This document shows positions 17,380-19,489 of a stretch of 27,088 nt of DNA, piece by piece. The translations under genes were made by a program, and so were the position numbers. Below the pieces are notes generated by a model that worked only from the letters and a program-made list of their open reading frames with translations, had not been told where the DNA came from and did no database searches. This DNA is from a virus (Duplodnaviria; Caudoviricetes): IMG/VR virus record IMGVR_UViG_3300005611_000167, positions 1 to 27,088 of that record; one strand, written 5' to 3'. Each line of letters begins with the position of its first letter. Within the stretch, counting starts at the first letter, position 1.

Positions 17380-18030
17380 TTATGCTCCTGTGGTTGCAAT
17401 TACGTCTCGCTGTCTCTTTTCCATACTGCGCCCGTGTCCGATATAGGCTACCACGGAAACGCTTTTATCCCAACACGCTCGGCATTTGTCGCATTTACCG
17501 GCGCGTGTGTACGCTTCGCAGACTACGGCATCTGTGGGCACCGTGTCAAGCGTTGCAATGGTGCTAGTAGTGCTACCCTGTATTGTCTCGCCTGTAATGC
17601 TGTCGGATGACAAGCGCACCACTACGTTAGGCAGTGACTCTAGTCTCGCTAGCACTAGCGCAAACTTCTGAAACTTGTGCATCCGTGTGGGTATCCAGTG
17701 TTTAACCCATGGTGTACGCTCGCAGACTTCTAGGATTTTCCTAGCGAGTCTGACGTCATACATATCGCCACTGTCAAACCACCGGAAATATCTGTCGTTG
17801 TCTAGCTCTGACACCATGTCGTCTGCCCAGTCGTCACGCTTCCAGTCGTCTCTGTTGTGCTCACGTGGTGCACGGACACTCTTAAACCTGTAGTTTCCCG
17901 TAGTCGCATAGCATCCGCTACACGCTGGCACTAGTGCACCACTGGCATCTCTGGACGCTGGGCATGTGTCTAACGCTTGCAGTGACCACGATCTACAGGG
18001 CATCTTTGATGCCTTCGATAGTTTCAACAT
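17380..18030 (-). CDS. GP88-family radical-SAM-like Fe-S protein
   Basis: CP-x12-CSGCYA, FRWFDSGD, HWIPTR, NVVVRLS and C-terminal C-x7-CDKCRACW. Confidence 0.75.
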   Translation of the reverse strand: MLKLSKASKMPCRSWSLQALDTCPASRDASGALVPACSGCYATTGNYRFKSVRAPREHNRDDWKRDDWADDMVSELDNDRYFRWFDSGDMYDVRLARKILEVCERTPWVKHWIPTRMHKFQKFALVLARLESLPNVVVRLSSDSITGETIQGSTTSTIATLDTVPTDAVVCEAYTRAGKCDKCRACWDKSVSVVAYIGHGRSMEKRQRDVIATTGA

Positions 18031-18032
18031 GG

Positions 18033-18224
18033 TTAAATCCCCCTAGTGTCTAGCACTATATCTGTTGCGATACCCCGCACCGAATACATGAGATCATAAG
18101 AGTATAGCCTACCCTCTGCGCCCGTGTAAGTCTCATGGGCAGAAATTAGTCTATTATCTACCCTAAATTCCCATAGTCCGCTGATGTCATTTTTGGCTAC
18201 TCTTAAATGCCTAGTGTTTGTCAT
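18033..18224 (-). CDS. hypothetical protein, first early gene
   Basis: 63 aa, AGGAG SD. Confidence 0.65.
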   Translation of the reverse strand: MTNTRHLRVAKNDISGLWEFRVDNRLISAHETYTGAEGRLYSYDLMYSVRGIATDIVLDTRGI

Positions 18225-18275
18225 CTTGTTTTGCTCCTATGGGGTGGCTGGTGTGTCCCCGCTCGCCGTGTGTAC

Positions 18276-18303
18276 ATAGTGCCACAACCAGAGATAAACG
18301 CAA
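18276..18303 (-). promoter_or_regulatory. putative sigma-70 early promoter
   Basis: Minus strand TTGCGT-16 bp-CACTAT with extended -10 TG, about 50 bp upstream of first early gene. Confidence 0.5.
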
Positions 18304-18314
18304 GTATTATCTTT

Positions 18315-18328
18315 TGGTAATTTTACCA
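18315..18328. promoter_or_regulatory. palindromic operator-like site
   Basis: TGGTAA-TT-TTACCA between back-to-back promoter elements. Confidence 0.45.
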
Positions 18329-18548
18329 CGTTTGGACTATTGACAACCTTTGTTGTCTCGTGCTATTCGCGTGTGCGCGTGTGTATAAAAGGCCACATGA
18401 ATTTATCCCTTGACATCTTGTGTCGTCTGTGGTTGGGGTGTAGCCATAGTGTAGCCAGAGGGTCCAACACTGGCACACACACTCTGTCAACGTGAATATT
18501 ACACTTGATTACGTGTGTCATCTGTGGTTGCGGCCTTAGGTTTACCCC

Positions 18549-18566
18549 ATGCAAAACCCGTGCCAA
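18549..18566 (-). promoter_or_regulatory. sigma-54 (-24/-12) site
   Basis: Minus strand TTGGCACGGGTTTTGCAT matches YTGGCACG-N4-TTGCW. Confidence 0.75.
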
Positions 18567-18584
18567 CTTTGGGGGCCTCTCGTG

Positions 18585-18602
18585 TTGGCATGAGTTGTGC
18601 TA
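18585..18602 (+). promoter_or_regulatory. sigma-54 (-24/-12) site
   Basis: TTGGCATGAGTTGTGCTA, GG-N10-GC spacing kept. Confidence 0.6.
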
Positions 18603-18620
18603 TAGCAAGACCCGTGCCAA
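18603..18620 (-). promoter_or_regulatory. sigma-54 (-24/-12) site
   Basis: Minus strand TTGGCACGGGTCTTGCTA; 18605-18624 matches 18551-18570 at 19 of 20 bases. Confidence 0.75.
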
Positions 18621-18651
18621 CTTTAGCAGCTCGCCTTTGGTACTATTACCG

Positions 18652-18681
18652 TTGACACGCGAGTTGGTCTTGTGTTATCAT
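18652..18681 (+). promoter_or_regulatory. putative sigma-70 promoter
   Basis: TTGACA-18 bp-TATCAT with extended -10 TG. Confidence 0.6.
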
Positions 18682-18909
18682 GGGGTGGGCCTTGTGTTGA
18701 CACCGGGGAGGGGGTTGACTTGTGTTTACTTTTGTAGTAGCCACCTCTGTTCACAAGAGGGTCAATTTAGGCTAAAAACTAGAAAAAAGAACATAATTTA
18801 TACACTAGCTAACCACTTGTTTTACCTCGTGTTTCCACAGGGGCGGGACTATAGTCATAAATATGGGTGTCTTTAGTACTATTTGTGATAAATTAACACT
18901 AAATAATGC

Positions 18910-18938
18910 TTGACTTTTGAGTAAAATTATGGTATAAT
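18910..18938 (+). promoter_or_regulatory. strong sigma-70 promoter for packaging/structural operon
   Basis: TTGACT-17 bp-TATAAT with extended -10 TG and AT-rich upstream DNA. Confidence 0.85.
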
Positions 18939-18950
18939 AATAAGCAGATA

Positions 18951-19055
18951 CTAGGTTGTATTTAGTACAGCAGATGTAGGGCTAAGTTTGAATGTTGAAT
19001 AGTTCGTATAGATCCCCTCTTCTGTTGCAACCTAGGCAGGGGACTCATGCGAACT
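18951..19055 (+). ncRNA. candidate structured 5' leader RNA of terS
   Basis: Stems 19001-19009/19047-19055 and 19013-19018/19038-19043; loop bases 19021-19035 complementary to 18968-18974 and 18951-18958. Confidence 0.45.
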
Positions 19056-19081
19056 CACGTTAAACACAAGGATACTGGATA

Positions 19082-19489
19082 ATGTCTGAAGAGACACCCA
19101 AAAAAAGAGGCAGAGGAAGGCCACGTAAGGGTGAAATTGTAGAAAAGACTGCAGGGAACCGTGGCAAAGTAGGTAGACCCAAGGGTGATGCCTCTATCAT
19201 TAACGAGTACAAGGCTAGAATGTTAGCCTCTCCTAAGTCAGAACTAGTACTACAAACGATATTTGACGCTGCAACTAACGATGACCACAAGAATCAGGCG
19301 GCGGCTTGGAAGCTAATCATGGATCGTATCCTCCCTGTGGGCGCATTTGAGAAGGACGTAATCAAAGATGCAGGACGAAACGCGATACAGATTAATATCA
19401 CTGGGGTGGGAAGCACGACAATTAGTGAGAGCGTTGAATCAGGAGAAGAAATTGATGGAGAAGCAGTTGATGTCACGGGACAAGTTTGA
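19082..19489 (+). CDS. terS: terminase small subunit (putative)
   Basis: AT-hook-like KKRGRGRPRK and GRPKG, helical core AAWKLIMDR, IQINITG tail; first gene of packaging operon. Confidence 0.7.
   Translation: MSEETPKKRGRGRPRKGEIVEKTAGNRGKVGRPKGDASIINEYKARMLASPKSELVLQTIFDAATNDDHKNQAAAWKLIMDRILPVGAFEKDVIKDAGRNAIQINITGVGSTTISESVESGEEIDGEAVDVTGQV

Follow-up and report, generated by a model that had tools for sequence, protein, structure and literature searches.

The window, by which we mean the whole stretch of DNA analysed here, is the entire 27-kb record (about 75% complete), and the virus is judged to be marine by the sequencing runs containing it. Two gene arms diverge from a gene-free gap at 18225-19081: a minus-strand replication arm with class II ribonucleotide reductase, endonuclease I, a T7-like polymerase, a primase-helicase and a GP88-family gene, and a plus-strand packaging arm with terminase and portal. 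The gap is bordered on the replication side by the first early genes, a 63-aa ORF and the GP88-family gene (17380-18224, minus strand), and on the other side by the first packaging-arm gene (19082-19489, plus strand), which has no profile match and by its position is likely the small terminase. The latter was the anchor for fetching relatives, with the GP88-family gene as second anchor. A near-consensus sigma-70 promoter of the packaging/structural arm (TTGACT-17-TATAAT, 18910-18938, plus strand) lies outside the repeat described below. Judged by gene content, the layout is of the cobavirus/Zobellviridae type with its two ends joined: ICBM1, SIO1, RIO-1 and VpV262 likewise have two opposed arms, a T7-like polymerase, a primase-helicase, a class II ribonucleotide reductase and short direct terminal repeats, according to the available text of the cobavirus paper (PMC6775973), and ICBM1 shares a C-run near the left tip as well. 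These phages are only distant kin of the window, however (polymerase at most 50% and portal at most 28% identical, anchor gene without a match), and no close cultured relative was found in homology comparisons.

The gap is predicted to contain a direct terminal repeat of 275 bp (18464-18738), transferred by alignment from the contig ends of relatives, which appears once in the window because the assembly joins both genome ends. The relatives were fetched by each flanking gene (80 loci each) and by a conserved motif, which gave 33 loci from viruses and 77 from metagenomes. At the left boundary four contigs (L487, L512, L541, L030) begin exactly between GAGGGT and CC, and L502 and G002 begin one base further in, L487 and L502 being from one sample and possibly not independent. 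At the right boundary contigs L432/G002, L440, L555 and L569 end 29 nt past the central base of a conserved G-run, and a scaffold gap of L411 falls exactly on this +29 position. In the set fetched by the GP88-family gene 3 of the 35 upstream-cut loci stop precisely there (L432, L440, L411). Among the 110 motif loci, four of the 13 left-cut ones start 2-3 nt before the motif, the other nine scattering over 85-410 nt, while two of the 22 right-cut ones end at +29 and a third is a repeat end. Two complete relatives have exact terminal repeats of 146 nt and 257 nt between the landmarks, which is the T7/cobavirus-type arrangement predicted for the window by homology. Among relatives the repeat length (205-356 bp) and the contents vary, and the landmarks stay. 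DNA contigs and RNA contigs from sequencing runs displayed neither ends nor starts of molecules here and were uninformative. The preliminary description had presumed a genome end at this location, and the contig ends of the relatives back it; it had missed that the location is a direct terminal repeat, belonging to both ends. Four other genomes are silent on the ends, since G001, G003 and G004 have no terminal repeat, and the 123-nt repeat of G005 sits inside a gene and was rejected as a genome end, being an assembly overlap.

Three sigma-54-type sites lie within this repeat, and their previously proposed coordinates and strands are confirmed by the sequence: site 1 (TTGGCACGGGTTTTGCAT, 18549-18566, minus strand), site 2 (TTGGCATGAGTTGTGCTA, 18585-18602, plus strand), which has one mismatch (G for T before TGC), and site 3 (TTGGCACGGGTCTTGCTA, 18603-18620, minus strand), which is 118 bp from the predicted early-side terminus. 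Their distances are 118-189 bp to the tip on the early side and 85-156 bp to the opposite one, and since they are inside a direct terminal repeat both virion ends are predicted to carry them. In all three, exactly 10 bp separate GG (-25/-24) from GC (-13/-12). When the seven consensus positions outside GG/GC were scored, these were the only sites in the 27 kb that reached at least 6 at 10-bp spacing; 1000 dinucleotide shuffles of the window gave a mean of 1.24 sites, and three sites within 100 bp in none of the 1000. It is clear that the three sites are real and far above chance. Their format matches the ChIP-mapped sigma-54 motifs of E. coli in the available text of PMC4591121.

Sites 1 and 3 point inward, at early genes 315-370 bp off, and transcripts from them would start near 18539 and 18593, whereas site 2 points outward, has no downstream gene in its own orientation, faces the early-side terminus and overlaps site 3. 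Sites 2 and 3 are head-to-head partners (GC-N4-GC), and the imperfect palindrome that they had been said to form (18584-18621) is indeed there, with 83% complementary arms; judging from footprints, the abutting pair probably cannot hold two holoenzymes together. The distance of 54 bp between the two minus-strand sites is correct as well. Its interpretation as five helical turns is unsupported, because a 54-bp unit occurs in tandem copies in the lineage (17 occurrences) and because 10.5-bp phasing is absent among 13 distinct same-strand spacings (Rayleigh p 0.17).

Several other elements were recognized in the repeat. The left landmark (18462-18490, minus strand; TTGACA, 17 nt, TG, TTGGAC, without a -7 T) is the most conserved block of the alignment, and we take it to be a sigma-70-like site, the -10 hexamer of which straddles the predicted repeat boundary. 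Next to it an AT-rich near-palindrome, GTGAATATTAC (18492-18502), is flanked by two back-to-back -35-like hexamers and is likely a shared UP-type element; the 62 kb preceding the anchor gene contain 69 matches to it, as against 4 in 406 kb of other sequence. A SlmA site was considered for it and ruled out, as the rule applied (G, T, A and G at positions 1, 2, 4 and 5 of a 12-bp palindrome) requires G at position 5 where GTGAATATTAC has A, and the SlmA pattern had no match in the 73 distinct junctions collected from the family. A second sigma-70-like site (18505-18533, plus strand; TTGATT, 17 nt, TGTGG, TTGCGG, no -7 T) faces sigma-54 site 1. The -10 hexamer ends in T in none of the 61 sigma-70-like sites of 63 distinct repeats, the -7 T being present in the packaging-arm promoter, from which we infer that the sigma-70-like sites would fire poorly. 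A good sigma-70 promoter match (TTGACA-18-TATCAT, 18652-18681, plus strand), missing in some relatives, points at the G-run and the early-side cut. The G-run itself, GGGGAGGGGG (18705-18714, plus strand), has its central A 29 nt before the predicted cut at 18738/18739, between GT and AGCCAC. The pattern GGGNAGGG is present in 59 of the 73 junctions and is presumably the FtsK-orienting (KOPS) motif; a G-run followed by a T-rich tract also resembles what we take to be R-loop-forming primer signals, and the G-run may simply be a terminase signal. For CRP, FNR, MatP, parS, IHF and NrdR, patterns written from the consensus sequences gave no match in the 73 junctions.

The sigma-54-type sites are conserved in the family by their two elements and the distance between them. 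Upstream of the anchor gene (68 kb) there are 58 sites at spacing 10 versus 0-2 each at spacings 7-9 and 11-13. In 46 non-duplicate sites of relatives the T-GG-C-A...T-GC columns are nearly invariant, with 23 different 5-base spacers, that is, the flanking consensus TTGGCAC...TTGC(A/T) is kept around a free spacer. It had been proposed to scan relatives for this spacing, a palindrome conserved without it being the outcome that would speak against sigma-54; the scan gave the opposite. Altogether 86 sites occur in 31 of the 73 distinct junctions (2.0 in shuffles), 55 of them inward, toward the early genes, and 31 outward. An abutting partner accompanies 22 of the 31 outward sites, while inward sites are often alone, as in L012, L025 and L035, which have single inward sites without a partner; therefore the basic unit is the single inward site, the head-to-head pair is a frequent add-on, and the palindrome emphasized in the preliminary description is not the unit. 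Among adjacent convergent neighbours 17 of 27 show the 18-bp start offset. The sites have a median distance of 137 bp from the end, and arrays reach 8 sigma-54 sites or 10 DnaA boxes. Contig L512, which starts at the left boundary, holds five sigma-54 sites, and L555, which ends at the right boundary, has the same minus-plus-minus trio and three DnaA boxes.

Beyond the family, among the viral contigs scanned the 4-base centre was present in 49 of 124 convergent-pair loci, nearly all peaks being at 3-7, and bacterial genomes had it in 42 of 135, of which about 38 are one dispersed Leptospira repeat and the rest of the loci spread across all spacings; a search with a 3-base centre (42 stretches) served as off-spacing control only. 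At least three sites were present in 59 of 80 viral convergent-pair loci versus 9 of 80 bacterial ones. The many-copy dispersed repeat of saprophytic Leptospira (L259, L261, L320 and about 35 more loci), which contains a head-to-head sigma-54-like pair with GC-N4-GC, is an exception to the idea that bacteria lack this layout. In three relatives (L001, L015, L017) a lone perfect sigma-54-type site is found among the early genes, 1.3-2.1 kb left of the anchor, the repeat having no site.

The main feature added here is that the sites occupy one shared, interchangeable slot with mapped ends. Among the 73 distinct junctions sigma-54 sites are found in 31, perfect DnaA boxes in 24, Fur-type boxes in 2 (near-identical) and the TGTGGTA core of the sigma-70-like sites in 20; the DnaA consensus is that of the T5 preprint (bioRxiv 10.1101/866236). 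The junctions contain 91 perfect DnaA boxes versus 0.2 in shuffles, 79 inward and 12 outward. Of 63 repeats with both landmarks, 20 have sigma-54 sites only, 5 sigma-54 sites and DnaA boxes, 2 DnaA boxes only and 27 a convergent sigma-70-like pair, and 9 contain none of the scored modules. When the four slot labels were placed on the 62-row tree of the anchor protein (built from loci having 700 bp or more upstream; 19 with less were excluded), 18 changes were needed, as compared with 25 for shuffled labels and a minimum of 3. The nearest relative, 97% identical in the flanking anchor gene, has a slot without a sigma-54 site; sigma-54 and DnaA sites are both missing from a deep clade that comprises 15 tree rows. 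Site 1 aligns in register with the minus-strand sigma-70-like site of L001/L010 (TTGGCAC versus TTGACAC), thus face-to-face polymerase-type sites are kept whichever sigma factor they match. Other repeat arrays, namely TTGAGTATTTCTCAA (three times), CTAAGTCTAACTGTTG, GCAGGTGTGC and TGTTACC, fill the slot in further relatives (L458, L071/L079/L080, L439/L440, L007/L421/L432), and these are candidates for further host-factor sites. A freshwater record combines, ahead of its G-run, one DnaA box with a sigma-54 site and a Fur-type box. In L411/L412, in the 300 bp to the left of the G-run, three boxes of the Fur type are found within the repeat, and LexA-type CTGT-N8-ACAG boxes and one sigma-54 site just outside it; these box types may point to a gamma- or betaproteobacterium as the host of that lineage.

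It should be emphasized that DnaA, Fur and the two kinds of polymerase site have only tight binding in common, therefore occupancy near the tip is likely the selected trait. In the explanation that we favour, with a probability of roughly 45%, the three sites would be docks where host sigma-54 RNA polymerase is parked without transcribing; they would be one of several interchangeable fillings of the predicted terminal repeat, which would cover the ends of the DNA with host proteins that bind tightly, and in this way protect and hold the end that enters first until the early genes have been expressed. The occupancy part alone, without a protective purpose, appears fairly probable. The host would have to possess sigma-54 and bind these sites with it, the early-gene end would enter first, which we assume by analogy with T7, and the occupancy would slow RecBCD-type end-loading nucleases or stop the end from sliding back. 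The preliminary description had mentioned a clamp protecting or anchoring the first-entering DNA among its options, and it is this putative role that the new data favour. According to the available text of PMC4591121 such sites are occupied by inactive sigma-54 holoenzyme, which fires only with an enhancer-binding ATPase, and the ChIP-mapped sites of E. coli include transcriptionally inactive ones.

How much protection such a coat could give may be considered from what is reported on RecBCD. In the accessible part of bioRxiv 10.1101/142224 single proteins do not make the enzyme pause but tandem arrays of them do (for 9.5 s at five EcoRI sites), and by analogy this would fit arrays of any tight binder; the same text reports that RNA polymerase holoenzyme is promptly evicted, also when pushed into other proteins. 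Since holoenzyme is quickly evicted and the terminal 118 bp are bare, the shield could only delay RecBCD. The end-coat reading also has to face the 9 of 63 repeats without scored modules, the 15-row clade without sigma-54 or DnaA sites, and the inward bias of the sites, which is as real promoters would show. Furthermore the location could be explained without an end-specific role, because the repeat region is the only large non-coding space.

The cultured Vibrio phage VpV262 (AY095314.2, locus L605) bears on the question of the ends. It has six sigma-54-type sites at 173-348, just inside the left end, with spacings of 41, 41, 21, 34 and 21 bp and two convergent pairs included; of seven high-scoring sites in the 46-kb genome only one lies elsewhere, and there is none at other spacings. 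Its terminal repeat is 1-138 (138 bp), the sites are outside it and therefore belong to the left end only, and such a left-end-only array points to the leading end as the place of action. ICBM1 and RIO-1, unlike VpV262, have no sigma-54-type sites at their ends. Of the 13 records of distantly related phages, 11 being from cultured isolates, 10 have no strict site at any position, and near the ends such a site was found only in VpV262 and one freshwater record.

Among the other explanations, a DNA decoy survives best, although we consider it doubtful: the repeat, which each genome contains twice and replication multiplies, would titrate sigma-54 holoenzyme here and DnaA or Fur in relatives, and so damp stress responses, host replication or iron control. 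The high-consensus arrays of up to 8 sigma-54 or 10 DnaA sites, the dose doubled by the repeat, the lack of an activator gene and the estimate of only some 250 sigma-54 sites in all of E. coli (in the available text of PMC4591121) are consistent with it. However, a separate and unrelated benefit would be needed for each cargo, yet near relatives swap cargo freely; a decoy needs neither a fixed distance from the end nor the polarity that the DnaA boxes exhibit, and the VpV262 sites are at the left end only. The sigma-54-specific version of the decoy, as it had been suggested, is weakened because the sites are freely replaced in the slot and absent from the nearest relative.

Rather improbable is an element of the concatemer junction, where parked proteins would act as a roadblock or insulator in repeat duplication and packaging, or would insulate the back-to-back early and late promoters once the ends are joined. 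The array does lie between two conserved cut landmarks, and in the window a sigma-70 promoter points at the cut. T7 provides a precedent for a transcription-linked packaging signal; any such signal must be supplied here by host polymerase, because the window encodes no RNA polymerase according to protein and profile annotation. On the other hand, the VpV262 sites are outside its 138-bp repeat, the repeat of the family varies in length and contents while only the landmarks stay, and sigma-54 bound inside E. coli genes gave no transcription roadblock in the available text of PMC4591121. A literature search on repeat duplication was without a match.

That the inward sites are true sigma-54 promoters, which drive or boost the early genes in response to an active enhancer-binding protein of the host and so form a host-state switch, is unlikely, and we give it a slender chance. 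Near-perfect consensus, the inward bias (55 of 86) and the existence of lone inward sites are what promoters would show. Against this, the slot is swappable, with sites missing from the nearest relative and from 42 of the 73 junctions and replaced in relatives by sites that are not promoters; outward sites face a DNA end, and the partners of the abutting pair overlap each other's start region. The lack of an AAA+ activator, already noted for the window, was confirmed by a profile search for the PF00158 domain, which is absent from all 10 related or cultured phage records searched (the window and nine others, 8 of them at least 90% complete), and no conserved upstream activator or enhancer motif was seen in the alignment; an activator might still be supplied by the host. 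The earlier judgement that the sites are ill-suited as ordinary promoters is upheld, with the spacing conserved and no activator gene; the nitrogen-gated switch offered next to it is unsupported, since DnaA, Fur-type or sigma-70-like sites freely refill the slot and the nearest relative has none of the sigma-54 sites. Equally unlikely, finally, is that the motif is not a sigma-54 site and is instead the target of some phage protein or of a different host dimer, or a neutral repeat expansion from neighbouring TTGACAC boxes. In favour of this, TTGGCAC differs by a single base from TTGACAC and takes its place in the same register, tandem copies of 54-bp units exist, and the Leptospira hairpin repeat has GC-N4-GC geometry too. 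Against it, the two elements and their distance of 10 bp persist although the spacer sequence changes, many sites are single or belong to same-strand arrays, the motif is common to unrelated phages and its presence is not followed by that of any phage gene: of 26 early-gene clusters none occurs in all 23 site-bearing loci (57 loci compared), the best association (uncorrected p 0.008) being a 5-locus lineage cluster.

The host-protein docks favoured here can be compared with known systems. Bacterial sigma-54 (RpoN) -24/-12 sites share with the window TGGCAC-N5-TTGC, the fixed GG-N10-GC and occupancy without firing (available text of PMC4591121). Unlike them, the window sites are clustered, partly abut head-to-head, are inside a predicted phage terminal repeat, have no activator gene or enhancer and are replaced by unrelated sites in relatives. 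A parallel in purpose may be T5: in the accessible part of a preprint (bioRxiv 10.1101/866236), T5-like phages keep DnaA boxes in the non-coding first-entering repeat of a lytic phage, and a model, not a test, assigns to these boxes a role in the entry of the DNA instead of its replication. The repeat of T5, a siphovirus that injects its DNA in two steps, measures 10 kb and has eight boxes in a conserved layout (same preprint), whereas the window has a podovirus-type genome, a 275-bp repeat, sites 100-200 bp from the tip and swapped cargo. The T5 iss element is characterized by a terminal repeat of several kb, the long inverted repeats of which contain DnaA boxes in pairs, and by the two-step injection genes A1/A2; the window's own repeat has no perfect DnaA box, and the 37 window proteins include no A1/A2 family match. 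Mu Gam and the phage exonuclease/annealing pairs address the same exposure of injected linear ends to RecBCD, but they are phage proteins that are made after entry and bind the tip (available text of bioRxiv 10.1101/2025.08.30.673261), while the proposed coat would be written in DNA, consist of host proteins, act at once and sit about 100 bp inside. Phage end-binding proteins can expose the phage to Gabija, as the same preprint reports in that text, so a gene-free coat would, speculatively, gain an advantage.

In a literature search with most subscription papers outside its reach, no description of sigma-54 sites in phage terminal repeats was found, and for DnaA boxes in such repeats only the T5 preprint; the available text of the cobavirus paper (PMC6775973) does not mention promoters or host-factor sites in the repeats. 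The presence of host-factor sites in the predicted terminal repeat of the window is real, and their function is putative. More generally, and tentatively, lytic phages might carry a DNA-encoded end coat, the terminal repeat being a plug-in cassette of high-affinity sites for fast and lasting host binders (sigma-54 and sigma-70 polymerase parked in face-to-face pairs, DnaA, Fur) which would shield or ratchet the first-entering end before phage proteins exist. How a linear phage genome survives and enters in the seconds before it has its own proteins is an open question, and the interior of short terminal repeats is usually taken as filler. One mapped slot filled by unrelated host-factor sites in close relatives is a natural swap experiment, and it argues for occupancy as the function. 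If the end coat is true, it would be a counter-defence or entry machinery without a gene, would bring together the DnaA boxes of T5 and the sigma-54/DnaA arrays, and would give silent sigma-54 closed complexes a structural, non-transcriptional use. The occupancy idea is directly testable in the cultured phage VpV262.

A few other observations were made around the gap. Scans of genome bins gave 7 loci with the large terminase and 2 with the anchor gene, in scattered unrelated taxa; as host evidence these were dropped and read as binning contamination or chimera. One long-read bin (L084, JAYQIQ010000001.1) has the phage packaging arm abruptly joined to a glycolate oxidase operon and looks chimeric, not like a prophage. 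In the packaging-arm leader the non-coding block 19005-19052 (GTTCGTATAGATCCC...GGGACTCATGCGAAC) is strongly conserved with complementary ends and is likely an RNA hairpin or regulatory leader; an Rfam search gave no match to the block and a single chance match overall (E 0.46). A hairpin-like leader (GGGGTGGC...TGTCCCC, 18241-18262) is directly ahead of the first early gene, and it is common to L001, L002, L020 and L035 whatever fills their slot.
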